From: an uncultured delta proteobacterium
GTDB lineage: Bacteria > Desulfobacterota > Binatia > Binatales > Binataceae
Direction: 5' to 3'
Length of the DNA stretch: 64,000 nucleotides
Assembly (NCBI GenBank): GCA_963761255.1
Contig: CAVXGH010000001.1
Span: 345,675 to 409,674 of the forward strand
In this document: positions 2,315-61,930 of the stretch, piece after piece
Position numbering within the stretch: the first letter of the stretch is position 1
Layout of the letters: each line of letters opens with the position of its first letter
Made by a program: the position numbers and the translations under genes
Notes under the pieces: generated by a model
Told to the model about the DNA's origin: nothing
Database searches by the model: none
What the model saw: only the letters and a program-made list of their open reading frames with translations

Positions 2315-2338
2315 ACTTTTCGTAGCGAGTTTGAAGTG

Positions 2339-2370
2339 GGCGGGAGGAGCAATCCTCCCGCTTTAATTTG
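2339..2370 (+). terminator. Rho-independent terminator (GCGGGAGGA-gcaa-TCCTCCCGC followed by TTTAATTT)
   Basis: Perfect 9-bp GC-rich stem, 4-nt loop and T-rich tail immediately after the lipoprotein stop; it lies between convergent genes. Confidence 0.7.
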
Positions 2371-2380
2371 GGCTGCGGAC

Positions 2381-2767
2381 TTACTTGGGTTTGTCGGAAC
2401 CCGAGGCGGCCGTCTTGCTGCCAGTGGCCGAGGCCTTGAGCGCATCGAGCACGCGTTCGTGAACGATTGGATTGCGCTCGATTTTGTCTTCCAGCGTGCG
2501 GAACTCATCCAGGGTCAAGCCCTGCTTGGAGGCGGCCTGCTCCACGGTGAGACCGTGATTCTTCTGCATCGACGAATACACCGCGATGTATTTGTCAACC
2601 TGATCGCTGGGAACCGCGTCTTCATCGGGAATGCTGTCGTCATCCTGCGCCAGGCGCGTTAGGGCTGGCCGATGGGACGGGTTTGACTGCGCGGGCGCTG
2701 CAAACGAGATCGCGGGCAACATAAACGCACCGGCAACCGCGGAACATATCGCCAGTCGCGACCACAT
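2381..2767 (-). CDS. Secreted DUF4168-like hypothetical protein
   Basis: Internal Met start gives signal peptide MWSRLAICSAVAGAFMLPAISFAAPAQS; the C-terminal region (DKYIAVY...MQKNHGLTVEQ...GLTLDEFRTLEDKIERNP) resembles the DUF4168 family. Confidence 0.45.
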   Translation of the reverse strand: MWSRLAICSAVAGAFMLPAISFAAPAQSNPSHRPALTRLAQDDDSIPDEDAVPSDQVDKYIAVYSSMQKNHGLTVEQAASKQGLTLDEFRTLEDKIERNPIVHERVLDALKASATGSKTAASGSDKPK

Positions 2768-2935
2768 CAGCTCAGATTTTTTGCTTCTATCCACCCGAAA
2801 TCCAGACCTCCGGCGCACACGATGATGCAGGAACCTCATAGTGGCATTTGGCCGCCGCCGCTGAAAGGCCCGTCACGGCAATCGTCCGCGGCCCTTGCAA
2901 ACTGATGCTGCATGCTTAAGTTGTCCGCTATCTTG

Positions 2936-2960
2936 TGGCACTCTAATGCCGCGAGTGCCA
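2936..2960 (+). promoter_or_regulatory. CIRCE-like HrcA operator (TGGCACTC-N9-GAGTGCCA) about 100 nt upstream of groEL
   Basis: Perfect 8-bp inverted repeat with a 9-nt spacer matching the CIRCE consensus TTAGCACTC-N9-GAGTGCTAA in its core. Confidence 0.6.
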
Positions 2961-3057
2961 ATAATTCCTGGAATCTCACAGAAGTAAACGAACCCAAGTC
3001 AAAATTGCCGAGGCGGGCTCCGGTCGGCCGAGGTGAATCTAACGGAGACGAAAATCA

Positions 3058-4788
3058 ATGTCAGCCAAAGTGGTTGAACTTCACGAGAAAGCCCGCGTCG
3101 GCATCGTTCGCGGCGCCAACCTGGTCGCCAAAGCCGCGCAAGTCACCCTCGGCCCCAAAGGCCGCAATGTCCTGATCCAGCGCTCCTTTGGCGCACCGCT
3201 GGTGACCAAGGACGGCGTCACGGTAGTCAAGGAAATCGAGCTCGAAGACCGTTTCGAGAACATGGGCGCTATGATCATCCGCGAGGTCGCGCAGAAGACC
3301 GGCGATGTCGCCGGCGACGGCACCACCACCGCCACCGTCCTCGCGAAAGAAATGGTGACCGAGGGCATCAAGCTGTTGGCGGCGGGCCTCGCGCCGATGG
3401 AAATCAAGCGCGGAATGGACCTCGCACTGGCGGCGGCGCGCAACGCCATCAAGGAAATGTCCAAACCCATCAAGGATCGCGAACGGATGGAGCAAGTTGC
3501 GACCATCGCGGCCAATGGCGATTCCACCATCGGCAAGCTCATCGCCGATGCGATGCAGAAGGTTGGCAAGGAAGGCGTCATTACGGTGGAAGAAGGGCGC
3601 ACCCTCGAGACCACGCTCGATCTCGTTGAGGGGATGGTTTTCGATCGCGGCTATCTATCACCGTATTTTGTCACCAATCCGGATCGCCTCACCGTCGAGC
3701 TCGATGAGCCGGTGATCCTGCTGCACGAAAAGAAAATTTCCAACCTGCGCGACATGATTCCGTTGCTCGAACAAATCGTCCAGACCGGCCGTCAGTTGCT
3801 CATCATCGCGGAAGACGTCGATGGTGAGGCGCTCGCGGCATTGGTCGTCAATAAGCTGCGCGGCGCGCTCAAGGTTGCGGCAGTCAAAGCCCCGGGTTTC
3901 GGTGACCGTCGCAAAGAGATGCTCGAGGATCTCGCCATCCTCACCGGCGGTGAAGTTATCGCCGAGGAGTTGGGCCTCAAGCTGGAGAGCGTGAAGGTGA
4001 CCCAGCTCGGCAAGGCGCGCAAGGTGGTCATCGACAAGGACAACACCACCATCATCGGCGGCTCCGGCAAGAAGTCGGATATCAGTGGGCGCATCGAGCA
4101 GATTCGCCGTCAGATCGCGGACACCACCTCCGATTACGATAAGGAAAAACTTCAGGAGCGCCTCGCGAAGCTGACCGGCGGTGTTGCCGTCCTCAAGGTG
4201 GGCGCCGCAACCGAAGTTGAGATGAAAGAAAAGAAGGCGCGCGTTGACGATTCAGTTCATGCGTTGCGCGCCGCGGTGGAGGAGGGCGTGGTGCCCGGCG
4301 GCGGGGTCGCATTGGTTCGCGCGATGAAAGCCGTGCTCGAGTTGAAACTTCGCGACGAGCGCAAAGCCGGCGCGGAGATTGTCGCACGCGCGATGGGCGA
4401 GCCGCTGCGTCAGATTGCGAAAAACGCCGGCAGCGAACCCGAAGTCATTTTCAACGCGGTGCGCGAAGGGAAAGACGACTACGGTTTCAACGCCCGCACC
4501 GATACCTTCGAGAAGCTGAACGAGACTGGCGTCATCGATCCGGCCAAGGTGGTTCGCTCTGCGCTGGAAAACGCCGTCAGCGCGGCCTCGTTGCTGCTGA
4601 CGACCGAAGCCGCCATCGCCGAGAAGCCTCGCAAGGCTGCGCCGATGGGGATGCCTCCAGGAATGGGTGGAATGGGAGGCATGGGCGGTATGGGAGGCAT
4701 GGGTGGAATGGGCGGTATGGGTGGAATGGGAGGCATGGGAGGAATGGGCGGAATGGGCGGAATGGATGACATGGGTGGTGATTTCTAA
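3058..4788 (+). CDS. groL: Chaperonin GroEL (Cpn60) with an extended (GGM)13 C-terminal tail; no groES upstream
   Basis: Unmistakable GroEL sequence ([36 protein letters not shown]...; [11 protein letters not shown]); the C-terminus has 13 GGM repeats. Confidence 0.97.
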
Positions 4789-5036
4789 CCCGGATCATTG
4801 AAGAAAAGGTCGGCAGAGCAGGTTTAGTTGGTCATCAGTAAACTAGAAATCACTTGGATAACTACTTGGAGCGATAACTTCGAAGATGCAATCCGCTAAT
4901 GCTGAAAGTTTCTTCGAAGTAGAGTTTCGTATCTGAAAAGCTTGCATGCTCGACATGGTTATGAGACAAAAATAGGGTTCGTGCGCGGTTGCTTATGACA
5001 CTGGGCTACCGCGCGAGTTTTATTTAGGAGGACAGA

Positions 5037-5456
5037 ATGGAAGGGTTAATAAAGAAATCTTCAAAACTTGTCGGGCTGGCTGCCGGGGCTGCGTTGGCCC
5101 TTTCCTTTGCGGCAGGATGCTCGTCAGGTCAGCCCGATCCCGCGCAGCGCGCCGTGAATGCGGCGAATCGCGCGGACCAGGCTGCATCACGCGCCGAGGC
5201 TGCCGCTACCAAGTCGCAGCAGTCGGCTGCCCAGGCTCAGGCTGCTGCCAGCCGCGTCGAGCAGGCTGCCAGCGATGCGAAGGCTGCGGCTGATCGCGCA
5301 GAAGCGATTGCGGCCAAGACCATGGCCGGCGCCAAGCACGGCGGTGGCATGCATCATCGCCATCACAAGAAAGCGGCGGCTGAAGGCGGCGAAGGCGGAG
5401 CCGCGGCTCCCGCTCCGGCCGAAGGCGGCGCTGCACCGGCTCCTGCAACTCCGTAA
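5037..5456 (+). CDS. Ala/Gln-rich lipoprotein, paralog of 2033..2314, with a His-rich segment
   Basis: Signal peptide plus lipobox AAGC; Ala-rich helical repeats (AASRAEAAATKSQQSAAQAQAAASRVEQAASDAKAAADRAEA); HGGGMHHRHHKK; RBS aggagg. Confidence 0.55.
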   Translation: MEGLIKKSSKLVGLAAGAALALSFAAGCSSGQPDPAQRAVNAANRADQAASRAEAAATKSQQSAAQAQAAASRVEQAASDAKAAADRAEAIAAKTMAGAKHGGGMHHRHHKKAAAEGGEGGAAAPAPAEGGAAPAPATP

Positions 5457-5480
5457 CGACTGCCAGTTAGTTTGAAACTT

Positions 5481-5518
5481 GGGGGGTGTTCGCGAAAGCG
5501 AGCGCCCCTTTTGTTTCG
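5481..5518 (+). terminator. Terminator-like hairpin (GGGG..TCGC-GAAA-GCGA..CCCC then TTTTGTTT)
   Basis: G/C stem with an internal GNRA-type tetraloop hairpin followed by a T-run, after the lipoprotein stop. Confidence 0.45.
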
Positions 5519-5561
5519 CGGGGGGCAGTCGCAATGTCGTTGCGCGCTGCGCTGATCGCTA

Positions 5562-6584
5562 TCAATCGCGAAAGGTCACGACAACCTTGAGCGACTGGGG
5601 CTTCTGCGCCATCGCATATGCATCCGATATTTGCGCGAGCGGGAAATGATGCGTCACCAACTCGCGCGCGTTGATCACGCCTCGCGCGACGAGGTCCAAC
5701 GCGATCCGCGTATCATCGGGGCCGCAGGAGTAACTCGGCACCAGCTTCGTCTCATTGAAATACAAATCGTGCGGATGAACGATCAGCTCATCGTCGGGAG
5801 GCGTCGCGGTGAACTGCACGACCGTCGCGCCTTTTCCCGCGGCTGCGATGCCGGTTGCTATCGCTTTGCTGCTCCCCGGACCGACGATGACCACATCGGC
5901 CATCGCACCGTTAGTCACCTCGCGGACTTGTTCGACGAGATTGTCGCCCGCGACAATAATCGCGCGATCGGCGCCGAGCTCCAGCGCGCGACTTGCGCGC
6001 TGCGCGAAGAGATCCGCGCCAATGATGGTTCCCGCGCCGAGATGACGCGCCATCTTCACGTGCATCATGCCCATGATGCCGAGCCCGATGATGAGGATTG
6101 ATTCGCCCGGCTTAAGCGCCGCGCGCTTGAGCGATTTCACCACGCATGCGGCGGGCTCGACCAGCACACCGTCGGCATCACTGAGCGCCGCGGGCAGATG
6201 GAGCGTATCGCGCTGATTGGTGGCGCTGACGAGAAAATATTCCGCCATCCCGCCCGGATCGATTTTGGTGGAGCGCCAGGTCGCGCATTGCACATACTCG
6301 CCGCGCCGGCACGCCGCGCACGAAAAACATGGCGCATGATGATGCGCGAAGACGCGATCGCCGGGCTTGAAGTCATGCACCGCAGAACCCGTTTCCTCCA
6401 CGATGCCGACCGGTTCATGGCCGAGCACTGCGCCCGCCTTGCGCCGGATGTACCACGGCATGATGTCGCCGGAGCAGATTCCACAGGCGCGGGCGCGCAC
6501 CAGGATGTCGCCCGGGCCAACCTCTGGGCGGGCGGTTTCTTCGACGCGGATATCACCAAAATCGTATAAGCGAGCGACCTGCAT
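5562..6584 (-). CDS. Zn-dependent alcohol dehydrogenase / threonine-sorbitol dehydrogenase family (MDR)
   Basis: GroES-like ADH_N with GHEPVGIVEETG and the Cys cluster CGICSGD; Rossmann GLGIMG; start taken at the internal MQVARLY. Confidence 0.8.
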   Translation of the reverse strand: MQVARLYDFGDIRVEETARPEVGPGDILVRARACGICSGDIMPWYIRRKAGAVLGHEPVGIVEETGSAVHDFKPGDRVFAHHHAPCFSCAACRRGEYVQCATWRSTKIDPGGMAEYFLVSATNQRDTLHLPAALSDADGVLVEPAACVVKSLKRAALKPGESILIIGLGIMGMMHVKMARHLGAGTIIGADLFAQRASRALELGADRAIIVAGDNLVEQVREVTNGAMADVVIVGPGSSKAIATGIAAAGKGATVVQFTATPPDDELIVHPHDLYFNETKLVPSYSCGPDDTRIALDLVARGVINARELVTHHFPLAQISDAYAMAQKPQSLKVVVTFRD

Positions 6585-7575: not shown

Positions 7576-8592
7576 TCAATTCTTTGCCTTATCCACCAAC
7601 CGGTCGCTGGCCAGCCATGGCATGAACGAGCGCAACTTCTTTCCCACTTCCTCGACCGGGTGATGCTCGCCTTCCTTGCGCATCTCGCGGAAGTGCGGAA
7701 GCCCCGCGCGATACTCATTGATCCATTCGTTGGCGAATTTGCCCGATTGGATATCCGCGAGGATCTGCTTCATGGCCTTGCGCGCATCTTCGCTGACGAC
7801 TTTCTTGCCGCGCGTCATATCGCCGTATTCGGCGGTGTTGCTGATCGAGTAGCGCATGTTGGAAATGCCGCCCTCGTAAATCAGATCCACGATCAGCTTC
7901 ACTTCGTGCACGCACTCGAAATACGCCATCTCGGGCGCGTATCCCGCTTCGACCAGCGTCTCGAAACCGGCGCGAATCAATTCGGTCAACCCGCCGCATA
8001 GCACCGACTGCTCGCCGAAGAGATCGGTTTCGGTTTCTTCCTTGAAGGTGGTTTCGATGATCGCCGCACGCGCTCCGCCGATCGCCGCGCCGTACGCGAG
8101 GCCGATTTTGGTGGTGTCGCCCGAGGGGTCCTGCTGCACCGCGAGAAGGCAGGGAACGCCGCGTCCCTTCGTATATTCGGAGCGCACCAGATGGCCGGGT
8201 CCCTTGGGCGCGATCATGAACACATTGACGTCCTTGGGCGGTTTGATGAATCCGAAATGGATGTTGAAGCCGTGGCCGAAGGCGAGGTACTTGCCGGGCT
8301 TGAGCGCGGGTGCAATTTCCTTTTCGTAAATTTCGCCGCCCTGCTCGTCGGGCACTAGCATCATGATGATCTCGGCTTCGGTGGCCGCCTCGGTCGTGTC
8401 GAGCACCTTGAGGCCGTTTTTCTGCGCCTTGTCGATGCTCGCGCTGCCCTTGCGCAGACCGACGCGCACATCCATGCCGCTGTCGCGCAAGTTGAGCGCA
8501 TGCGCGTGTCCCTGGCTTCCATAGCCGATGATCGCGATCTTCTTGGGACGAAGAAGGCTCAAGTCAGCGTCGCGATCGTAATAGACTTTCAC
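7576..8592 (-). CDS. ilvC: Ketol-acid reductoisomerase
   Basis: [39 protein letters not shown]...; class I KARI length (338 aa). Confidence 0.95.
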
Positions 8593-9162: not shown

Positions 9163-9399
9163 TCAGTGTGCCTCGTGCTGATGCTGATGGCGTTCGAGCA
9201 TCGCCATCAATTTATCTTTCGAGGCCAGCTTGAGTTTTTGGATACGCTTTTTTTCGAGTTCCTCTTCGGTGCTTAGGTGGATTTTATCGCGGAAGCCTTC
9301 CAGTTGATGCTTGAGCTCCTGGTGTTCGGCATACAGGGCCCGCATCTCGTCGTCATGAGACATCAGTTGCTGAATGATCTCTTCGTCTCGTCGCTCCAT
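9163..9399 (-). CDS. DUF465 (YdcH-like) small coiled-coil protein
   Basis: 78 aa, charged helical, HQELKHQLEGFRDKIHLSTEEELEKKRIQKLKL pattern typical of DUF465. Confidence 0.5.
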   Translation of the reverse strand: MERRDEEIIQQLMSHDDEMRALYAEHQELKHQLEGFRDKIHLSTEEELEKKRIQKLKLASKDKLMAMLERHQHQHEAH

Positions 9400-10181
9400 G
9401 GCCTCTCCTTGGCGGCGGCAACTGGAGGTGCCGCCACGGGTTTGAACGTGGCTTCAGCGCTGCGGACATAAAGTGGCTCGAGGGTCGCAGGCGTATCGAT
9501 CTCGCCGCGCGATATCCTCTCCACCGCCAACGCCGCGACGTATCGGCCGCGCGAGTTAAGCTCCACCCCTTCCAAAACAGTGGACCGTATTCCTCGCTCG
9601 TTGAGTAACAACGATGCTACCTTCGCTTTCGAATCTCCGACCAGTATAACTCCATCCGAAAGCTCTGGGTAAAGGTTCTGTAACTTTATTACCAAGGGTT
9701 GCGAAATTTTGTCCAGCCGATCCGCCCTCGCGCGATAAAGATTTGTATAGACCTCTCCCTTGCGCGCATCGAGGATGGGGCAAATGTCGATGCCCTCAGG
9801 CGGTGCGGCCTGCTCGAACGCCGCGAGAGCTACACAATCAAACGTCGGAATACCTACCAAGGCGCACCTTAACGAAAGGACCAGCCCCTTCGCGTAGGCG
9901 ATCCCGACGCGCAAGCCGGTGAAGGAGCCGGGTCCGGTACCGACCGCGATGCCCTCCAAATCTTTCAGGGTGAGGTTTGCCTGTTCGAGCACTTCGGCGA
10001 CGGCAGCGGGAAGCTCCGCCCCGTGCGATGCTGCCGAGCGCGTGAGTTGGGCGAGCACTTTCCCATGCGAGATCACCGCGAGCGATGCGGTCGCGCTCGC
10101 CGTATCCAGCCCCAGCACCGGTCCCACGCCGGCGCCTAATGCGAGAAGTTTCTCAGCTTTGAATAAGATGCGAGATGTCAT
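9363..10181 (-). CDS. tsaB: tRNA t6A biosynthesis protein TsaB (YeaZ; inactive Kae1/TsaD paralog); the true start is probably internal
   Basis: LGLDTASATASLAVI...GPGSFTGLRVGIAYAKGL motif; the ORF is longer than the typical ~230 aa. Confidence 0.75.
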   Translation of the reverse strand: MTSRILFKAEKLLALGAGVGPVLGLDTASATASLAVISHGKVLAQLTRSAASHGAELPAAVAEVLEQANLTLKDLEGIAVGTGPGSFTGLRVGIAYAKGLVLSLRCALVGIPTFDCVALAAFEQAAPPEGIDICPILDARKGEVYTNLYRARADRLDKISQPLVIKLQNLYPELSDGVILVGDSKAKVASLLLNERGIRSTVLEGVELNSRGRYVAALAVERISRGEIDTPATLEPLYVRSAEATFKPVAAPPVAAAKERPWSDETKRSFSN

Positions 10182-16434: not shown

Positions 16435-17872
16435 TTAGGCATTCATTGAATCGAGGAATTCGTCGTTGGTCTTGGTCTTCTCCATCTTGTCGATGAGGAA
16501 TTCCATCGCCTCGACCGAATTCAACTGCGACAGCAACCGCCGCAGGATGAACACCCGATTCAGCGTCGCACGCTGCAGCAGCAATTCTTCCTTACGCGTC
16601 GAGGAGCGCTGGATATCAATGGTCGGGAAGATGCGCTTCTCGATCAGCCGGCGGTCCAGCCCAATCTGCTGATTGCCGGTGCCCTTGAACTCCTCGAAGA
16701 TGACCTCGTCCATCCTGCTAGCCAGTGTCCACCAACGCGGTCGCAATAATCGTCAAGCTGCCGCCATCTTCAGTATTGCGCGCGGCGCCGAAAAACTTCT
16801 TCGGCTTATGCAACGCATTGGAATCGACGCCACCCGAGAGAATCTTGCCCGACGGCGGCACCACGGTGTTGTAGGCGCGCGCGAGCCGGGTGATGGAATC
16901 GAGCAGGATGACGACGTCGCGGCCATGCTCAACCAGCCGGCGCGCCTTCTCGATGACCATTTCTGCCACCTGCACGTGACGGGTCGGAGGCTCATCGAAG
17001 GTGGAACTGACCACCTCGCCCTGCACCGAGCGGAGCATGTCGGTGACTTCCTCGGGACGTTCATCGACGAGCAACACGATCAGCACGATCTCGGGATGAT
17101 TGTGCGCGATCGCTTTGGCAATCGCCTGCATCATCATGGTTTTGCCGGTGAACGGCGCCGCCACAATGAGTCCGCGCTGACCTTTTCCGATTGGCGCGAT
17201 CAGGTCGATGACGCGGGTCGTGAGGTCCTCGTGATTGTATTCGAGCTTGATGCGTTCGGTCGGGTAAAGCGGCGTCAGGTTGTCGAACAGGATCTTGTCG
17301 CGCGCTTTTTCCGGATCCTCGTAGTTGATCGATTCGACCTTGAGCAGCGCGAAGTAGCGCTCGCCCTCTTTCGGCGGCCGAATCAGGCCGGAGACGGTGT
17401 CGCCGGTGCGAAGATTGAACTTCCGAATCTGGCTCGGCGATATATAGATGTCGTCGGGGCCGGGCAGGTAGTTGTAATCGGGCGAGCGCAGGAAGCCGAA
17501 GCCGTCGGGCAGGATTTCCAGCACGCCCTCGCCGAGGATGGCGCCATTGCGATGCGCCTGGGCCTGGAGGACCGCGAAGATCATCTCCTGCTTGCGCATG
17601 TTGACCGCGCCTTCGACCTCGAAGTCGCGCGCGATCTGCGCCAGGTCGGTGACTCGGGCCCGCTTGAGCGCTTTGAGATTCAGCACTCCCTCGGGCGAAA
17701 TCACCTCGACCGGTTCCGACGGTGGTTGTAGCTGTTGCGGACGATCTACGATCTGGCGCGGCTCGGACTGGACCGAATCATCGCGCAGGTCGTGGTGTCT
17801 CGCCGCACCTCTGCCTTTAGCCATATGCCTCCCCCGCATCCTGCCAACTCTGCCTTCTTCTTGATTCTCCAT
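16435..17872 (-). pseudogene. rho: Transcription termination factor Rho, interrupted by a +1 frameshift near 16720 (pseudogene or sequencing error)
   Basis: ORF 16718..17872 encodes the Rho N-terminal extension, CSD, P-loop GKT and most of the ATPase, ending ...ALVDTG*; ORF 16435..16746 in another frame continues [16 protein letters not shown]...AMEFLIDKM, the canonical Rho C-terminus; one extra nucleotide separates them. Confidence 0.9.
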
Positions 17873-33606: not shown

Positions 33607-34800
33607 ATGAAACTGGGAACATTCTACGAGCATCAACTGCCGCGCCCTTGGAACGAGGGCGATGAGCTCAAGCTTTTTCAGGACGCGCTCGATCAGGTCG
33701 AGCTCGCCGATAAACTCGGCGTCGATCATATGTGGGAAGTGGAGCATCACTTCCTCGAAGAGTATGCGCATTCGTCGGCGCCGGAGATTTTTCTCGCGGC
33801 GTGCAGCCAGCGCACCAAAAACATCCGCCTCGGCCACGGCATCGTGCTGCTGCCGGCCGGCTACAATCATCCCGCGCGCGTGGCGGAGCGCATCGCGACG
33901 CTTGATTTGGTGAGCAACGGCCGCGTCGAGTTCGGCACCGGCGAATCCTCCGCGGAGCTGGAACTGGGAGGCTTCAACATTCCGCGTGCCGACAAGCGCG
34001 AGATGTGGCAGGAATCGCTCGGCGCGATCGCGCGCATGTTCGTCGAGAATCCGTTCCTTGGCCACGACGGAAAATATTTCAAGATGCCGGTGCGCAACGT
34101 GGTGCCCAAGCCGGTGCAGAAACCGCATCCGCCACTCTGGGTTGCGTGCTCGCGGCGCGAAACCATCCACCTTGCCGCCAAGCTCGGAATCGGCGCGCTG
34201 ACCTTCGCGTTCATCTCGCCCGAGGAGGCCAAGCAGTGGGTCAACGATTACTACACCACGCTGGCCAATGAATGTGAGCCGATCGGCTACGCGATCAACG
34301 CCAACATCGCGATCGTGACCGGCTTCATGTGCGATAAGGACGAGCAGCGCGCGCGTGCGATGGGCGAGGAGGGCCTGAACTTTTTCTCCTACGCGCTCGG
34401 CCATCATTATTTCTTCGGTCAGCACGAAGTAGGAAAAACCAACATCTGGAGCAACTTTAAGAACAACAAGTTTCAGATGCCGGGAATGGGCGGCGAAGCG
34501 GCGTGCGTCGGCACTCCCGACAAAATCCGCGCGAAGCTCCGCGAATACGAAGATGTCGGCGTCGATCAGGTGGTGTTCATCTCGCAGGCCGGCAAGAACA
34601 AGCATGAGGACATCTGCAGCTCGCTGAATCTGTTCGGCAAGGAAGTCCTTCCCGAATTCAAGGACCGCGAACAGCAGAACGCCAAAAAGAAGGCCGAGCG
34701 GCTCGAGCCGATCATCGAAAGTGCGATGAAGCGCAAACGTCAGCCGAGTGTGCCGAAGCACGACGGGCCCACCATCGTGACGGCAGCGCCGCTGCCATAG
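33607..34800 (+). CDS. LLM-class flavin-dependent oxidoreductase (luciferase-like monooxygenase)
   Basis: TIM-barrel LLM motifs (VDHMWEVEHHF; RLGHGIVLLP; NGRVEFGTGES). Confidence 0.8.
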   Translation: MKLGTFYEHQLPRPWNEGDELKLFQDALDQVELADKLGVDHMWEVEHHFLEEYAHSSAPEIFLAACSQRTKNIRLGHGIVLLPAGYNHPARVAERIATLDLVSNGRVEFGTGESSAELELGGFNIPRADKREMWQESLGAIARMFVENPFLGHDGKYFKMPVRNVVPKPVQKPHPPLWVACSRRETIHLAAKLGIGALTFAFISPEEAKQWVNDYYTTLANECEPIGYAINANIAIVTGFMCDKDEQRARAMGEEGLNFFSYALGHHYFFGQHEVGKTNIWSNFKNNKFQMPGMGGEAACVGTPDKIRAKLREYEDVGVDQVVFISQAGKNKHEDICSSLNLFGKEVLPEFKDREQQNAKKKAERLEPIIESAMKRKRQPSVPKHDGPTIVTAAPLP

Positions 34801-34826
34801 CCGCAGGCGCGATTTTCACATGCACC

Positions 34827-34861
34827 AGGCCGGCCCACTCTCGGGCCGGCCTTTTTTTGAT
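34827..34861 (+). terminator. Strong rho-independent terminator (GGCCGGCCC-actctc-GGGCCGGCC then TTTTTTT)
   Basis: 9-bp GC stem plus T7 tail after the LLM stop. Confidence 0.8.
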
Positions 34862-34878
34862 CTTTCGTTAAGCTCCAC

Positions 34879-34900
34879 ATCTGGAGTACTATCTCCAGAT
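34879..34900. promoter_or_regulatory. Perfect palindrome ATCTGGAG-tactat-CTCCAGAT 10 nt upstream of the antitoxin start; candidate autoregulatory TA operator
   Basis: 8-bp perfect inverted repeat with a 6-nt spacer in the TA promoter region. Confidence 0.5.
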
Positions 34901-34909
34901 AGAGATATC

Positions 34910-35341
34910 ATGCAGGCGCGCCACGCAACCGTACCCGTCAGTCAATTCGACCGGGGAGATCGCCAGGACCCTGACGCGCGCAAGAGGTTGTCCGGCCCCG
35001 CAATACGAGCGTTTTTCAACCTGGCCAGAAAATGGGAACTCAGCGTCGATCAGCAGCGCGGCCTGCTCGGATGGCCTGCTCCTTCGACCTATCACAAGTA
35101 CAAGGCGGGACGGATTGGAACCCTGTCTTTCGATGCACTTACGCGGGTTTCGCTGCTGCTCGGAATCTACAAGGCGCTCCACATTCTCTATCCGCAGGCC
35201 GAACTCGCCGATCAGTGGATCAAGCTGCGTAACACGAACTCAATTTTCGGGGGGAAATCGCCGCTCGCGCTGATGCTGGATGGCGGCATCGACGCGCTTT
35301 ACCAGGTGCGCCGCCTGCTCGATGCGCGCCGCGGCGGCTGA
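34910..35341 (+). CDS. DUF2384-domain antitoxin (Xre/MbcA/ParS family)
   Basis: C-terminal toxin-binding domain pattern (WLxxPNxxFGGKSPLxLM...G); genetic pairing with a downstream RES protein. Confidence 0.7.
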   Translation: MQARHATVPVSQFDRGDRQDPDARKRLSGPAIRAFFNLARKWELSVDQQRGLLGWPAPSTYHKYKAGRIGTLSFDALTRVSLLLGIYKALHILYPQAELADQWIKLRNTNSIFGGKSPLALMLDGGIDALYQVRRLLDARRGG

Positions 35342-35387
35342 TCTGCGTCCTCCGCTTCATCACATCAGGTGGCGCGGAACCCATCGC

Positions 35388-36011
35388 ATGATTCCGAGCC
35401 GCTATCCATCGGTCGGGATCCTCGATGAGATCGCCGCGCCGGAGGATCTCGACGCAATTTTCGAACTCGAAGGATGGACCAACGATCGCATCAGCAACGA
35501 ACTTGGCCTCCTGCATACGATTCCTAAAGAGGACTGGGTCACCGCCCAACCGATGGCGACCGTCATCATGGGCGCGTTTTGTCATCCGCGGCCTTCTGGC
35601 GGGCGCTTCAACGACGATCGGCGCGGCGCATGGTATTGCAGCCTCGCGATCAAGACCGCGCATGCCGAGGCCATTTTCCATCGCACCCGCGAGCTCGAAG
35701 AAATCGGCGGATGGTTCGACACCGCGGTGCAAATGGCTGACTATCGCGCCGATTTCAACGCCGATTTCCACGACCTTCGAGGGCGAGGTTTTTCCGCTTT
35801 CCTGAGGCCGGACGACTACCGCGCCTCGCAGAAAATTGCGCGCGCGCTTTTGGAAGATGGTTCCAACGGCATTGTCTATCCGAGCGTGCGCGATCGTGAT
35901 GGCCTATGCCTCGTATGCTTCAGGCCCCGGCCTGTTGCCAATGTGAAGCTCGCGGCGGTCTACGAATATCGGTGGTTGGGAACTCCGACGCCCTCCGTCC
36001 GAAAGTTGTGA
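35388..36011 (+). CDS. RES-domain toxin (MbcT/ParT-like NAD+-targeting family)
   Basis: R...E...S core: GGRFNDDRRGAWYCS..., ...AHAEAIFHR..., NGIVYPSVRDRDGLCLVCF; start MIPSRYPS after the antitoxin. Confidence 0.75.
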   Translation: MIPSRYPSVGILDEIAAPEDLDAIFELEGWTNDRISNELGLLHTIPKEDWVTAQPMATVIMGAFCHPRPSGGRFNDDRRGAWYCSLAIKTAHAEAIFHRTRELEEIGGWFDTAVQMADYRADFNADFHDLRGRGFSAFLRPDDYRASQKIARALLEDGSNGIVYPSVRDRDGLCLVCFRPRPVANVKLAAVYEYRWLGTPTPSVRKL

Positions 36012-36675: not shown

Positions 36676-37878
36676 TTATACGGGCAGTTTGTAGGCGTTG
36701 GCGACGTTCTCGCCGAGGATGGCGCGGCGCCCCGACTCCTTCATCGGCGCGATGAGGCCGCGCAACTCTTCCAGGTAGTTGCCCGGATGATCCGGATGCG
36801 GATAGTCACTCGCCCAGAAGAATTTATTTTCGCCAATTAGTTCCATCATGGCGGCGATGGTGCGCTCATCGGGATCGGCCGAGATGTAGCATCGATTTTT
36901 GAAGTAGTACGAAGGCTTCTCTGCCAGTCGCACAGTCGCCCCGAGCGGAGTGCCGGTGAAAATCGCGTCGGCGCGGTCGAGCCAGTAACCAATCCATCCG
37001 GCGCCGGCTTCGAGCACCACCAGCCGCATCTTCGGAAAGCGATCGAAGACGCCATACTGGAAGAAGGTCCCCAGCGCGTGCTGACAGCCCTGCGCCGCGA
37101 ACAGGTCGTTGTACCATGCGGCCCAGCCGAATTTGTCGAAGCGATGATGCACGCCGAACGCGATCGGCTCCAGGGTCGGATGAATCGCCAGCGGCACATC
37201 GAGATCCTGCGCGGCCGCAAACACCGCATCGTGATCGGGATGCCCATGCGGTTTGCGCGTGATGGTGAATGGCGCGACGAATGCGCCTTTGCATCCATCT
37301 TTCACAGCGCGCTCAAACTCCTTCGCGGCGGCCTCGGGATCGCCGAGCGACAGATGCGCGATCGGCACCAGGCGTCCGCCGGTGTCGCGACAGAAGTCCG
37401 CGATCCATCGATTGTAGGCGCTGCAGTAGGCCGCCGAGAGTTCGGGGTCGAAAAGTTCCGCCTCCCACAACAGTCCGATAGTCGGGTAGAGCAGCGCCTT
37501 GGCCATGCCCTCCTTGTCGATCAGCTCGATGCGCTCCTTCGCATCCATGGTGCCGAAGGCCGCGCCCTTCATGTAGGTCTGCTCCGGCGTGGGACGCATC
37601 GCGCGCGCGTCTTCGGGGCGGATTTTTCCGGTCATCATGGATTCGCGAAGTTGCTTCGCCTCGTTGACATTCTTTCCCATTCCGCCAAGAGAACCGAGGA
37701 CGCCGGGTTGGGTCAGGCGGGCGCGCTTCCCGTCGATTTCGAGAAATTCGTAGCCGTCCTCCGCGACGCGGATGCGCATCGCACGCGCGCGATACTTCGG
37801 ATCGAGGTATTTCTCCCACAAATCCGGCGGCTCGAGGATGTGCCCGTCGGCATCGATGACCAGCGCTTCAGCAGGCAT
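36676..37878 (-). CDS. Amidohydrolase-2 family protein (ACMSD-like metal-dependent hydrolase/decarboxylase)
   Basis: IDADGHILEPPDLWEKYL N-terminus and HPxxxD...YPHPDHPG patterns of Amidohydro_2. Confidence 0.7.
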   Translation of the reverse strand: MPAEALVIDADGHILEPPDLWEKYLDPKYRARAMRIRVAEDGYEFLEIDGKRARLTQPGVLGSLGGMGKNVNEAKQLRESMMTGKIRPEDARAMRPTPEQTYMKGAAFGTMDAKERIELIDKEGMAKALLYPTIGLLWEAELFDPELSAAYCSAYNRWIADFCRDTGGRLVPIAHLSLGDPEAAAKEFERAVKDGCKGAFVAPFTITRKPHGHPDHDAVFAAAQDLDVPLAIHPTLEPIAFGVHHRFDKFGWAAWYNDLFAAQGCQHALGTFFQYGVFDRFPKMRLVVLEAGAGWIGYWLDRADAIFTGTPLGATVRLAEKPSYYFKNRCYISADPDERTIAAMMELIGENKFFWASDYPHPDHPGNYLEELRGLIAPMKESGRRAILGENVANAYKLPV

Positions 37879-37893
37879 GGATGGTTTCCTCAG

Positions 37894-38817
37894 CTAGAAA
37901 ATCGCGATCGGATTGACCGGGGAGCCGGTTCCGCGTTCGAGGATGAGCGGCGCCATGGTGAACATGAACTCGTAGCGCGAATGCTTCTTCGCCTTCTCCG
38001 AGAGCGAATCGAAGTCGCCATTGTCGATAAGATGGATGCCCTGCATCACCAGCGTGCCGACGTGCACCGGCAGCATCAGGCCCTCGTAGCCGCTGGGCAT
38101 CACGTCACTCACCGCGTCGGAGCCGAGCACCGCGATTTTGCGCTCATGCAGCCACTTGAGGCAGCTCGCATCGAGGCCGGGCAGTCCCTCGGCCGGATCC
38201 CATCCGCCTTTGGCCTTGCGATTCGCGGCGCGACCGGTCCGCACCAGCAGCACGTCGCCCTCTTCGACGTGAACCTTGTGATCCTTTTCGGCAGCATCGA
38301 GGTCCTCGGGAAAAATCGCCACGCCTTTCTCAAGCCAATCAACTTTTTTAAGCTTGGGGATATCGAGCAGCACGCCGCGGCTGACGATGCCGGTGCGGGT
38401 GACATCGATCGGGCATTTACGCGCGCCATGGGAACCGACCTCGCTCGCATCGAAGCCGTTGTACATTTTCTTTTCCCAGAACACGTGGCAGAGCGCGTCG
38501 ATGTGAGTGGTCGCCATCCCATGAAACGAAATCGCGAAATAATCGCCCGAGTACGGCAGCGGCGTATGATGCGCGTCGTGCCCCGACTGCACCATCAGAT
38601 GGGTGACCGGAGTGGGATTGTCGGGCGCGGGGGTGACCGGGAGTGGCAGCGCGCATGATGCGGTCTCGCCGGTCTGCACCAGCTTGCTGGCGCGCGCGAC
38701 CTGCTTTTCGGTGATATAGTTCAGCGCTCCGCGCTGGTCGTCCTTACCCCATTTTCCCCAGTTGTTGCACTTTTCGAAGAGTCCTTTGATCTCGGCAGAC
38801 GTGAGCCGTTGCGCCAT
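37894..38817 (-). CDS. Cyclase-family protein (kynurenine formamidase-like)
   Basis: Cyclase fold motifs (HxGTHxDAxxH: HGMATTHIDALCHV; VLLDIP...DVLLVRTG). Confidence 0.7.
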   Translation of the reverse strand: MAQRLTSAEIKGLFEKCNNWGKWGKDDQRGALNYITEKQVARASKLVQTGETASCALPLPVTPAPDNPTPVTHLMVQSGHDAHHTPLPYSGDYFAISFHGMATTHIDALCHVFWEKKMYNGFDASEVGSHGARKCPIDVTRTGIVSRGVLLDIPKLKKVDWLEKGVAIFPEDLDAAEKDHKVHVEEGDVLLVRTGRAANRKAKGGWDPAEGLPGLDASCLKWLHERKIAVLGSDAVSDVMPSGYEGLMLPVHVGTLVMQGIHLIDNGDFDSLSEKAKKHSRYEFMFTMAPLILERGTGSPVNPIAIF

Positions 38818-38940
38818 GGTAGTGTCTCCTTGCAGAGTCGATTTTTCCGTATAGCACGAACTACGAGATGCGGAACAACTGAGAATTATTGAACGATTGG
38901 TATGCGCGCGGGCGGTATGCGAGCGGGATAGAATCAGTCA

Positions 38941-58004: not shown

Positions 58005-59285
58005 TTAGTAATCGTCCGGCAGCGCGAGCGCGAGAAAATCCGCGAGGTGAATCACCGTGAGGTGCACGCCGCGCCGCCGCAACTCCGCGGCAATTTGAAA
58101 TTCGCATCCGGGATTCGACAGCACGACGTAGTCGGCGCCCGTCGCAACGATGTTGTCGGCCTTTCGCTTCGCCAGCGCGCGCGCCATCTCGGGCTCGGTG
58201 AGATTGTAACTGCCCGCCGAGCCGCAGCAGAGATCTGCCTCGACGAGATCGATGAGCCGCACGCCCGGGATCGATCGCAGCAGCTTGCGCGGATTGTCGC
58301 GCACGCCGAGGCCATGCACCAGATGACACGCATCATGATAGGTGACCGTACATTCGAGCTTGCGAAATTGCGGCATCCGCTCCAGGAGCAGCGCGCTGAG
58401 GTCGCGCACTTTCGCCTGCACCTCGCGCGCGTCGTCCGCGGCAAAATCGTTTTTCAGGATGGCGGCGTATTCGGCCATCGCCGTCGAGCATCCCGAGGCA
58501 GCCGAAACGATCGCATCGGGCGCGAGAGCCTTGAGGGTGCGGACGTTCTCGCGCGCGAAAGTGATCGCACGCGCGTCGTTGCCGGCATGCAAATCGAGCG
58601 CGCCACAACACACCGTCGCGGGCATCTTGAGCACGCGATATCCCGCCGCGGCGAGGAGTTTTTCGCTGTTGCGATTTTCCGAATCGGCGAGCACCTGCGC
58701 GACGCATCCATGATGCACGACGACGCTCGGCGCATCCGCGGCCGGATGGGAGTCAACATGAACCGGCGCGGGCTGCGCGCGACGCACCAGCGGCGGGAGC
58801 AGTTCGACCCACTCTCGCAATGCTTTGGGAAGTATCGCTTCGATTGCGCCGCGCAGATGGAGCCGCTCCGCGAGCGCTAGCGGCGAAAGCATCGCGCGCA
58901 GACGATTTGGATACGGGAAGACCGCGCTGATGAGCGCGCGCTTCGCCCGGTCCAGCGGTCCGCGCTGATGATGATGCTCGACGTACGCGCGCGCGTCCTC
59001 GATGAGGCGGCCGTAGTGAACGCCCGACGGGCACGCGGTTTCGCATCCGCGGCATCCGAGGCAGAGATCGAGGTGGCGCACGACGTCGGCGTCGAGTTCG
59101 AGCCGGCCCTCGGCGAGCGACTTCATCAGGTAGATGCGGCCGCGCGGCGAATCCATCTCGGCGCGCGTCATCGCGTAGGTCGGGCACGCTTCGAGACAGA
59201 GCCCGCAATGGACGCAGTCGAATAGCAACTCGTAGTCAACGACGTCGCGAACCGGCTTGACGAGAGCGGCGGCAAGCTCAGCCAT
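58005..59285 (-). CDS. glcF: Glycolate oxidase iron-sulfur subunit
   Basis: Two 4Fe-4S motifs (CVHCGLCLEACPTY; CLGCRGCETACPSG) and CCG domains. Confidence 0.85.
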   Translation of the reverse strand: MAELAAALVKPVRDVVDYELLFDCVHCGLCLEACPTYAMTRAEMDSPRGRIYLMKSLAEGRLELDADVVRHLDLCLGCRGCETACPSGVHYGRLIEDARAYVEHHHQRGPLDRAKRALISAVFPYPNRLRAMLSPLALAERLHLRGAIEAILPKALREWVELLPPLVRRAQPAPVHVDSHPAADAPSVVVHHGCVAQVLADSENRNSEKLLAAAGYRVLKMPATVCCGALDLHAGNDARAITFARENVRTLKALAPDAIVSAASGCSTAMAEYAAILKNDFAADDAREVQAKVRDLSALLLERMPQFRKLECTVTYHDACHLVHGLGVRDNPRKLLRSIPGVRLIDLVEADLCCGSAGSYNLTEPEMARALAKRKADNIVATGADYVVLSNPGCEFQIAAELRRRGVHLTVIHLADFLALALPDDY

Positions 59286-60518
59286 CTAGACCCCTCCCAC
59301 GAAGCATCCGGCATTGAAGACCCCCGCCGGATCGAAGGTGTTCTTGAGCCGCCGCATCAGCTTTAATGCGCCCGGATTGGGGCGATCGAAAAATTCGATC
59401 TGCTCCCGGATCGACGCCGGCGCCGAGACGACGCGCAGATGGCCGCGCGCGGAATGCGCCAGCTCGCGCCATTGCGCGACGAGGTGCGGGTCCGCGGCCT
59501 GCGACCAGAGCTCCGCGATTCCTGAACCAACATGCGCGACGAACTCGCGCGACGACTCGCGAGCGCATCGCGCGAGCTGGTTCGGCATTACCGCGATACG
59601 CGCGGCGATAGCGCCTTCGCCGAAGCTGAGATCGCGCAACGCGGAATAGAGTTGCACCGCAGGCTGCCCTTCGAGCAGTTCGACATCGGGACCGAGAGCT
59701 TTCGCGACTCGCTCGCTTAGGTAGTTGAGCTCGCTACGAATGCCGCCGAAGCCCGCCAACACCAGGAAGCGCACCGAGGTGCCGATCGCGGCACTCGCGG
59801 CGCGGCTCGTCACTTCGAGGTGAATCAACGAAGCCTGCTCATGGAGATTCGAGGCGGCGGCGAAGGCCGCGTCCGCATCGGGAAAGGCGGCCACTGCGAG
59901 TGTGTAGTTTTCCGGAATCGGGCGCACCTTGAAGGTCGCCTCGGTCACGATGCCGAGGGTGCCGAATGAGCCGGTCATCACCTTCATCAGATCGTAGCCG
60001 GCCACGTTCTTGACCACGCGGCCACCGGCGCGAACGACACGCCCGCCGACGCCGACGTACTGAATTCCAATCAGAAGATCGCGCACCGTTCCTTCCAAGA
60101 GCCGCAGCGGGCCGGCATGCGCCGCGCCGATCAGCGAGCCGAGTGTGGTCGCATCGGGGCCGCGAGGATCGACCGGCAGTCGCTGACCGGGAGTGGCGAG
60201 GGTCGCATTCAGGTTGCCGACCGTGAGGCCCGCCTGCGCAACGACCGTCATGTCCTCGGGCTCGTACGCGACGATATTCGCCATGCGCCGCAGGGAGATC
60301 CCGACTCGCGCCGGCGCGCGCCTGATCTGCGAGAGCGTCCGCGCCGCACCAATGGGCGCGAGGCTGATCTTATCGGACTCGCATTTGCGCACCAGCTCGG
60401 CGATCTCCTCGACGCTTTGCGGCTCGACGATCGTCTCGACGGCGCCGCTCGGATGTGGTTCTTCGAGGACCGCGCTCACAGCGGGATTTGCCTTCGCGGC
60501 GAGGTGACTTCGACGCAT
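59286..60518 (-). CDS. glcE: Glycolate oxidase FAD-binding subunit (the track ORF extends to 60692; the internal start is preferred)
   Basis: FAD_binding_4 domain; positioned between glcD and glcF. Confidence 0.75.
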   Translation of the reverse strand: MRRSHLAAKANPAVSAVLEEPHPSGAVETIVEPQSVEEIAELVRKCESDKISLAPIGAARTLSQIRRAPARVGISLRRMANIVAYEPEDMTVVAQAGLTVGNLNATLATPGQRLPVDPRGPDATTLGSLIGAAHAGPLRLLEGTVRDLLIGIQYVGVGGRVVRAGGRVVKNVAGYDLMKVMTGSFGTLGIVTEATFKVRPIPENYTLAVAAFPDADAAFAAASNLHEQASLIHLEVTSRAASAAIGTSVRFLVLAGFGGIRSELNYLSERVAKALGPDVELLEGQPAVQLYSALRDLSFGEGAIAARIAVMPNQLARCARESSREFVAHVGSGIAELWSQAADPHLVAQWRELAHSARGHLRVVSAPASIREQIEFFDRPNPGALKLMRRLKNTFDPAGVFNAGCFVGGV

Positions 60519-61930
60519 GCGCCGGGGGTGGGAATCACCTTGCCGGGATTCGAGCGCGCCTCGGGATCGAAGACGCGCCGCAGCTCCGCCATCGCCATCA
60601 GATCGCCGGGTGAGAACAGCAGCGGCATCTCGCCCATTTTCTCGACGCCGATGCCATGCTCGCCGGTCAGGCTGCCGCCCAGCTCGACGCATGCGGTGAG
60701 GATTTCGCGGCCGGCATCGATGGCATGCTGCACCTGACCCGCGATGCGCTCATCATAGAGCACGATCGGATGGATGTTGCCGTCGCCGGCGTGAAAGACG
60801 TTTCCGATCGCGAGGCCGTGACGCTCGCTGACCTGGTTGATCACGCGCAGGATGTCGGGCAGCCGCGTGCGCGGAACGACGCCATCCTGGGTGGCGTAAT
60901 TCGGCGCGAGCCTGCCGACCGCTCCGAAAGCCCGTTTGCGCGCTTTCCAGAGCAGCGCGCGCTCGGCCTCATCGCGGGCGAGCTTCGCTTCACTCACGCC
61001 ACACGCGCGCATCAGTTCGATCGCCGCCGCCGCGCGCTCATCGAGGCCGACTTCGAGGCCATCAAGTTCTACAATCAGTACAGCGCCGGCGTCGGGAGAA
61101 AATCCGACGTGGAACGCCGCCTCGACCGCTTTCAGGATGAGCCGATCCATCATCTCGATGGCGCCGGGAATCATTCCCGAGGCGATGATCTTCGAGACCG
61201 CCGCGGTCGCGTTTTCCACATCGGCGAAAGTCGCGAGGATGGTGCGATGGCCTTCGGGCTCGCGCATCAGCCGCAGCGTCGCCGCCGTGACCATCCCGCA
61301 GGTGCCTTCCGATCCGACCACCGCGCCGACCAGATCGTAGCCGCATCGTTCGTCGACCGGACCGCCGAGCGCGACGATTTCGCCATCGGGGAGAACGACT
61401 TCGAGCCCAAGGACGTGATTAGTGGTGACGCCGTATTTCAATGTATGCGGCCCGCCGGAATTTTCCGCGACGTTGCCGCCGATGGTGCAGGCCTGCTGCG
61501 ATGACGGATCCGGCGGATAGAAGTAGCCATTGGCCTTGACCGCGTTGGTGACGTGAAGATTCACCACCCCGCTTTGCACCTCGACGCGGCGATTGGCGAG
61601 GTCGATCGCGAGGATGCGGTTCATCTTCGAGGTGCAGATCATCACCGGCGCGAGCGGCAGCGCGCCGCCCGAAAGCCCGGTCCCGGCGCCGCGCGGTACG
61701 AAGGGAATTCCGCGCCGATGCAGCGCGCGCAGCACCGCGCTGACCTCCTCGGTCGAATGCGGCATGACGAGCAAATCCGGCGCGCTCTTTTCGATGGTCC
61801 AGCCATCGCATTCGTAGACCTTGAGTTCGCTGGCGCGCGAGACGATCGCGTCGTCGCCGACAATCGCGCGCAACTCCGCGGCGACGTTCGCGCTGATCGC
61901 AAGCCGAGGCGAGGTTCCGTTTCCTTCCAC
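60476..61930 (-). CDS. glcD: Glycolate oxidase subunit GlcD (FAD-linked oxidase)
   Basis: FAD_binding_4 plus FAD-oxidase_C; HSTEEVSAVLRALHRRGIPFVPRGAGTGLSGGALP. Confidence 0.9.
   Translation of the reverse strand: MEGNGTSPRLAISANVAAELRAIVGDDAIVSRASELKVYECDGWTIEKSAPDLLVMPHSTEEVSAVLRALHRRGIPFVPRGAGTGLSGGALPLAPVMICTSKMNRILAIDLANRRVEVQSGVVNLHVTNAVKANGYFYPPDPSSQQACTIGGNVAENSGGPHTLKYGVTTNHVLGLEVVLPDGEIVALGGPVDERCGYDLVGAVVGSEGTCGMVTAATLRLMREPEGHRTILATFADVENATAAVSKIIASGMIPGAIEMMDRLILKAVEAAFHVGFSPDAGAVLIVELDGLEVGLDERAAAAIELMRACGVSEAKLARDEAERALLWKARKRAFGAVGRLAPNYATQDGVVPRTRLPDILRVINQVSERHGLAIGNVFHAGDGNIHPIVLYDERIAGQVQHAIDAGREILTACVELGGSLTGEHGIGVEKMGEMPLLFSPGDLMAMAELRRVFDPEARSNPGKVIPTPGACVEVTSPRRQIPL

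Follow-up and report, generated by a model that had tools for sequence, protein, structure and literature searches.

A single extra base divides the rho gene of an uncultured Binatia-like bacterium and is likely a consensus artefact

Background

In the DNA analyzed here, a stretch of 64 kb that we call the window, the gene for Rho is interrupted by a stop codon, and its remaining part is read in another frame. Does this locus record the loss of Rho, a Rho assembled from two chains, or an error in the deposited sequence? An earlier, sequence-only reading of the window placed the break at 16700-16750, which is correct, and offered two interpretations of a one-base insertion, pseudogene or sequencing error. 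Our analysis leaves that alternative standing as it was put, with the evidence favouring the error. We consider it likely that the extra base is an artefact of assembly or consensus calling in a metagenome assembly, as opposed to a biological loss of Rho.

Results

One extra base separates two reading frames of rho

The N-terminal frame of rho runs on the minus strand from an ATG at 17872 to a TAG at 16720-16718 and encodes 384 aa ending in ALVDTG. The C-terminal part begins directly after it, one frame over. The features of the locus are as follows (coordinates, strand, description).

16718..17872, minus strand: rho N-terminal reading frame, covering the N-terminal extension, Rho_N, Rho_RNA_bind, and most of the RecA-type ATPase domain
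16720..16720, minus strand: extra base (T; A on the plus strand), through which the frame changes and both the TAG at 16720-16718 and the hexamer GCTAGC arise
16435..16719, minus strand: rho C-terminal reading frame, 94 codons (ending in DSMNA) followed by TAA at 16437-16435
16435..16713, minus strand: 92-aa open reading frame (MDEVIFEEF...) called for the C-terminal piece, its product recorded exactly

The deposited consensus therefore lacks a single uninterrupted rho frame, the TAG following residue 384. The start ATG of the 92-aa frame corresponds to a conserved methionine (the equivalent of E. coli Met327) and lies 4 nt past the TAG (UAGCAGGAUG). The protein collection lists the exact 384-aa and 92-aa products as two gene calls on one 463,350-bp contig (NCBI/ENA), together with the adjacent S2, EF-Ts, and RluD proteins.

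When the window was aligned at the DNA level with five relatives (L082, L081, L083, L002, and L001), all five showed a one-column gap at 16720. At the break, the window reads GGC-T-AGC where the relatives have GGC-AGC or, for L081, GGC-TCG. In silico deletion of the T at 16720 yields a 478-aa open reading frame without a stop, which bears out the proposal that one inserted nucleotide splits the gene. Deletion of the preceding C (GGC to GGT) also restores the residues G-S-R-M, and which of the two bases counts as extra is a matter of alignment convention. The flanking bases of the extra T are C and A, and the site lies outside any homopolymer, as had been pointed out before. In tblastn searches of the window with the Rho proteins of relatives, the alignments pass from frame -1 to frame -2 at 16721/16722.

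The two pieces are parts of one Rho protein

The 384-aa piece contains the N-terminal RNA-binding region of Rho proteins, with matches to PF07498 (Rho_N) at residues 69-110 (E=1.8e-13) and to the cold-shock-like PF07497 (Rho_RNA_bind) at residues 115-188 (E=2.1e-35), and it also matches PF00006 (ATP-synt_ab nucleotide-binding domain). Against the NCBIfam profile TIGR00767 (rho), this piece aligns to positions 3-321 of 415 (E=3.7e-165) with a score of 549.8 bits, which on its own exceeds the curated cut-off of 509.45 bits. The C-terminal piece, translated from 16716, aligns to positions 323-414 (E=1.5e-37), so that the C-terminal RecA-type ATPase domain is present and the profile is covered from end to end. 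A single residue, Ser, bridges the junction between the two matches. We conclude from these adjoining matches that the two pieces are parts of one Rho; they confirm, together with the reading frames, that the conserved C-terminus resumes in the other frame where the main frame stops.

Once the frames are joined, the window encodes a full-length protein that is colinear with known Rho proteins (TIGR00767 / PRK09376; E. coli Rho, PDB 1PV4, 1PVO, and 3ICE) and retains a conserved 24-residue motif. The joined protein scores approximately 608 bits against the E. coli Rho structures over query residues 62-476. It differs from E. coli Rho by the one-base interruption and by an N-terminal extension of about 60 aa, which is absent in E. 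coli and present in close relatives. This extension (17684-17872, minus strand) is rich in charged residues and Pro/Gln and varies in length among close relatives; the only other gap in the rho DNA alignments falls within its region.

Residue equivalences were taken from the alignment with 1pv4_A (query residues 64-476 against chain residues 1-416, with a 3-residue insertion in E. coli). By this alignment, the counterparts of E. coli Ser325 and Lys326 are query residues Ser385 and Arg386, which places the break inside the R-loop, between the equivalents of G324 and S325. The R-loop and the Q-loop form the secondary RNA-binding site in the central channel of Rho (PMC4499133). Lys326 is the C-terminal residue of the R-loop; most species have Lys or Arg at this position, and the K326A substitution lowers the ATPase activity of E. 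coli Rho by about 75% (PMC4499133). In the window, this last R-loop residue and everything after it are encoded in the C-terminal frame; the 384-aa product ends before the Arg in question and is missing the entire last quarter of the motor domain. That quarter carries the arginine finger (Arg366). Read at face value, the 384-aa chain should have no activity.

The frame break is private to the window

A protein search returned full-length Rho relatives of 475-478 aa at 96-98% identity, all with the same 22-residue stretch. For comparison at the DNA level we assembled rho loci from three sources: 80 from species-representative genomes, 4 via exact protein matches, and 65 from a scan of a metagenome collection. 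One locus, L084, was set aside since its sequence starts at the junction. The peptide spanning the junction aligns without gaps in all 148 related loci that cover the site. This comparison of the orthologous locus in relatives, which the sequence-only reading had named as a check, thus finds every spanning locus in frame. The metagenome collection was also scanned for any extra base at the site, using degenerate codon-aware flanks, and gave 0 contigs, while a longer and stricter pattern for the intact site was found in 65 contigs. Since the break occurs in none of the 148 loci and in none of the metagenome contigs, it is private to the window sequence.

The relatives are labelled as Candidatus Binatia or Binataceae, 'Deltaproteobacteria', and uncultured proteobacterium metagenome-assembled genomes (MAGs). 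Across rho, the nearest of them at the DNA level are L097 (92.7%), L082 (92.5%), and L081 (91.4%). The nearest relatives are a different species, and no sequence of the window's own species turned up in the collections searched, the best DNA identity among the 148 loci being 92.7%. The gene order rluD-rho-rpsB-tsf-pyrH-frr-uppS-cdsA-rseP is common to the window and its relatives. L081, the closest relative at the protein level, carries a HicB-like antitoxin gene upstream of rho (L081:459-935), at the place of rluD in the window, L082, and L083, so the synteny upstream of rho is not fixed in the group.

Two short Rho proteins also came to light. One of them, a JGI metagenome fragment of 92 aa (P0136), was considered as a second split rho and rejected, being merely a gene cut by the contig start. 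The other (P0109) is a 365-aa Rho ending in FFGAARN, and its end point differs from the break in the window.

The serine codon at the break (window 16717-16719) is variable among the compared loci: AGC in 113, TCG in 23, AGT in 5, TCC in 4, TCA in 2, and TCT in 2. It switches between two unconnected codon families even among close relatives, as illustrated by the TCG of L081, and this AGC/TCG alternation makes local strain differences at the site plausible. L084 (L084:1-1659, JGI metagenome, 91% DNA identity) starts at the break position, one base after the point where the serine codon plus A would end. This contig start may reflect strain variation, with the assembly graph branching there if the preceding base varies. 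Directly after rho, L084 has an IS481-family transposase where the window has rpsB.

Rho is conserved on both sides of the break

The closest relatives share up to 98% protein identity with the window and 91-93% DNA identity, and from 98% at the protein level against about 92% at the DNA level it follows that nearly all of the divergence is synonymous. Such a pattern argues that rho is under strong purifying selection in this clade. Upstream of the break, the codon comparison with L081 gave 89 synonymous and 10 non-synonymous differences; in the 94 codons downstream, all 17 differences were synonymous. Changes private to the window (bases found in none of six relatives) numbered 10 synonymous and 2 non-synonymous upstream, and 3 and 0, respectively, downstream. 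The GC content at third codon positions of rho is 0.78 upstream and 0.80 downstream of the break. These counts are small, and they suggest no drift of the downstream part.

The locus thus shows neither several lesions nor an excess of non-synonymous change downstream, the marks of a decaying pseudogene: there is one lesion and there are 0 downstream non-synonymous differences. With counts this small, the test rules out only an old pseudogene. The absence of downstream decay implies that the frameshift, if real, is extremely recent.

Rho is the only broken gene found in the window

A Pfam scan of about 48 other open reading frames with coding-like codon-position GC gave full or near-full domain matches for all but three frames that match no family, and rho is the only broken gene found in the 64-kb window. 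The window contains 23 homopolymer runs of at least 6 bases, none of which breaks a gene. Neither a second rho nor any Rfam match was found in the 64 kb.

Several apparent interruptions were considered and rejected. A frame change in ilvC seen by tblastn belongs to the relative L083, the ilvC of the window (7576-8568, minus strand) being intact. An apparent split of 'tsaD' resolves into a complete tsaB-like gene and, after it, a small open reading frame of its own. The contiguous same-frame pairs at 36676-38937 and 58005-60749 each consist of distinct genes whose domains are complete.

Other observations concern the composition and gene content of the window. A 78-aa open reading frame rich in Glu, Lys, and His (9163-9399, minus strand) overlaps the 3' end of the tsaB-like gene (9363-10181), an arrangement kept in L083. 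At 34781-36011 on the plus strand, an Xre-like/MbcA-ParS antitoxin gene adjoins a RES-domain toxin gene, and the two look like a RES-Xre toxin-antitoxin pair. Across the whole window, the tetranucleotide CTAG is much rarer than base composition predicts (33 observed versus approximately 227 expected); one CTAG, inside GCTAGC, is due to the extra T.

Discussion

A probable consensus error in an otherwise ordinary gene

The directly observed facts are a single-base lesion, intact genes in all relatives, and no decay. From these we infer that the extra T is missing from the real DNA. The rho gene of the window would then be an ordinary, single-copy, functional-looking gene whose deposited consensus carries one spurious T at 16720. 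The source is most likely a MAG of an uncultured Binatia-like soil bacterium, in which a residual assembly indel inside a gene would leave two called open reading frames, here of 384 aa and 92 aa. The organism itself would make a normal Rho of about 478 aa.

In metagenome assemblies, one to a few single-base indels normally remain per 100 kb. One residual indel in 64 kb is an ordinary rate for such an assembly, a general figure that is in line with published experience (PMC9262707). Frameshifts from consensus indels are a documented problem of long-read genomes and MAGs (PMC9262707), and correction tools for gene-fragmenting indels, proovframe and Kastor, are available. A possible example among the relatives is L083 (ENA ERZ25039491 contig_39783, a name in the style of a long-read assembler), in which three genes are split within 21 kb. 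These are the ilvC already mentioned, where the frame break relative to the window lies at L083:19061-19330, and the genes at 2320-3241 and 4712-5951, where ferrochelatase (183+118 aa) and a DinB/IMS polymerase (154+257 aa), respectively, are each called in two parts. The L083 assembly looks indel-prone.

The rho locus resembles such gene-fragmenting assembly indels in that one inserted base causes an otherwise perfect core gene to be called as two adjacent open reading frames. It differs from them in that the site is not a homopolymer, the classic context, and in being the sole such break in 64 kb. Both differences weigh against an artefact: an insertion outside a homopolymer is not the most typical long-read error, and the clean remainder of the window indicates that the assembly is not generally error-ridden. 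One way in which an error could arise at this particular site would be a consensus mis-merged across co-assembled strains with AGC and TCG serine codons, as GGC-T-AGC looks like a blend of GGC-AGC and GGC-TCG. We offer this strain-blend origin of the extra T as conjecture.

The artefact is favoured because an error strikes any base equally, giving a chance of the order of a few percent per genome for a gene of 1.4 kb, whereas a real majority-allele knockout of so conserved a core gene should be far rarer. This preference rests on a ratio of probabilities and not on direct proof.

A possible real and very recent mutation

The extra T could instead be real in the sequenced population or in its dominant strain, with rho a fresh pseudogene whose loss is tolerated or is compensated by a second rho or rho-like gene elsewhere. 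We regard this as unlikely, although several facts speak for it. The base is present in the deposited consensus, which seems of good quality locally, as the window has no other frame error. Some phyla, such as Bacillota, can do without Rho, and others lack it (PMC12360218); short Rho paralogs exist as a family (NF041509 paralog_Rho2 was among the matches of our profile search). The sequence-only reading held that a truly inactivated rho would be remarkable. This is fair, but the prior for such an inactivation is low, and the essentiality behind the remark is not universal, given the dispensability of Rho in Bacillota (PMC12360218).

Against a real mutation stands the very strong purifying selection on Rho in this clade, and the lesion is found in 0 of the 148 relatives. 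The part of the gene downstream of the break has neither a non-synonymous nor a further disabling change, so the mutation would have to be extremely young, and a second copy that might relieve the loss does not occur within the 64-kb window. In addition, the prior for a natural knockout of a conserved core gene as the majority allele is far below the chance of a consensus indel per gene.

Possible recoding or a two-chain Rho

A third explanation accepts the extra T and retains the protein. The ribosome would shift by +1 at GGC-UAG-C, or two chains, residues 1-384 and a 92-aa chain re-initiated at the AUG, would assemble non-covalently; we give either event very little credence. Under the recoding version, the product would be a full-length Rho reading ...ALVDTGSRMDEV... 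across the junction. That the extra T is real and that Rho activity is kept, through low-level +1 recoding or through a natural split Rho reassembling around the R-loop, seems to us very unlikely.

The site bears a superficial resemblance to the prfB (RF2) programmed +1 frameshift site, CUU UGA C. As in prfB, the window has a 0-frame stop exactly at the shift site, where the frame moves, and a C after the stop. The window differs from prfB in lacking a slippery P-site codon, a well-placed Shine-Dalgarno stimulator, conservation in orthologues, and any regulatory logic that would tie Rho to the recognition of stop codons. Re-pairing in the P site from GGC to GCU would give a central C:C mismatch with tRNA-Gly(GCC). 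The upstream GGUGGA, 4 nt before GGC, is a weak Shine-Dalgarno-like match with a central mismatch to the anti-Shine-Dalgarno sequence, and the same GGUGGA codons occur in relatives without the frameshift. A stimulatory structure would be expected near the site, but the fold of 16620-16760 (minus strand, 141 nt) is less stable than 196 of 200 shuffled sequences (z=+1.82). Programmed frameshifts are conserved among orthologues, whereas this one is present in 0 of 148 loci and in 0 metagenome contigs, against 65 intact ones.

For two chains, termination at the TAG and re-initiation at the in-frame AUG 4 nt past it (UAGCAGGAUG) would be possible in principle, and the break falls in a loop (the R-loop), outside the core secondary-structure elements. 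However, both chains would be without the Ser and the Lys326-equivalent Arg. Transcriptional slippage, translational hopping, and an RNA element were rejected in turn, as the site has no homopolymer, no matching pair of take-off and landing codons, and neither an Rfam match in the window nor a stable fold.

Conclusions

On the preferred reading, that of a consensus artefact, the rho locus of the window is not a new biological feature, and the finding is an ordinary one. If the break were real, a factor on which most Gram-negative bacteria depend for life would be missing or split in a free-living bacterium whose clade conserves it very tightly, and if the split Rho were true, it would be the first natural Rho in two pieces. 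As the evidence stands, this rho is best annotated as intact, with a note that a consensus indel is suspected, and comparative or metabolic studies of the genome should not score it as lost.
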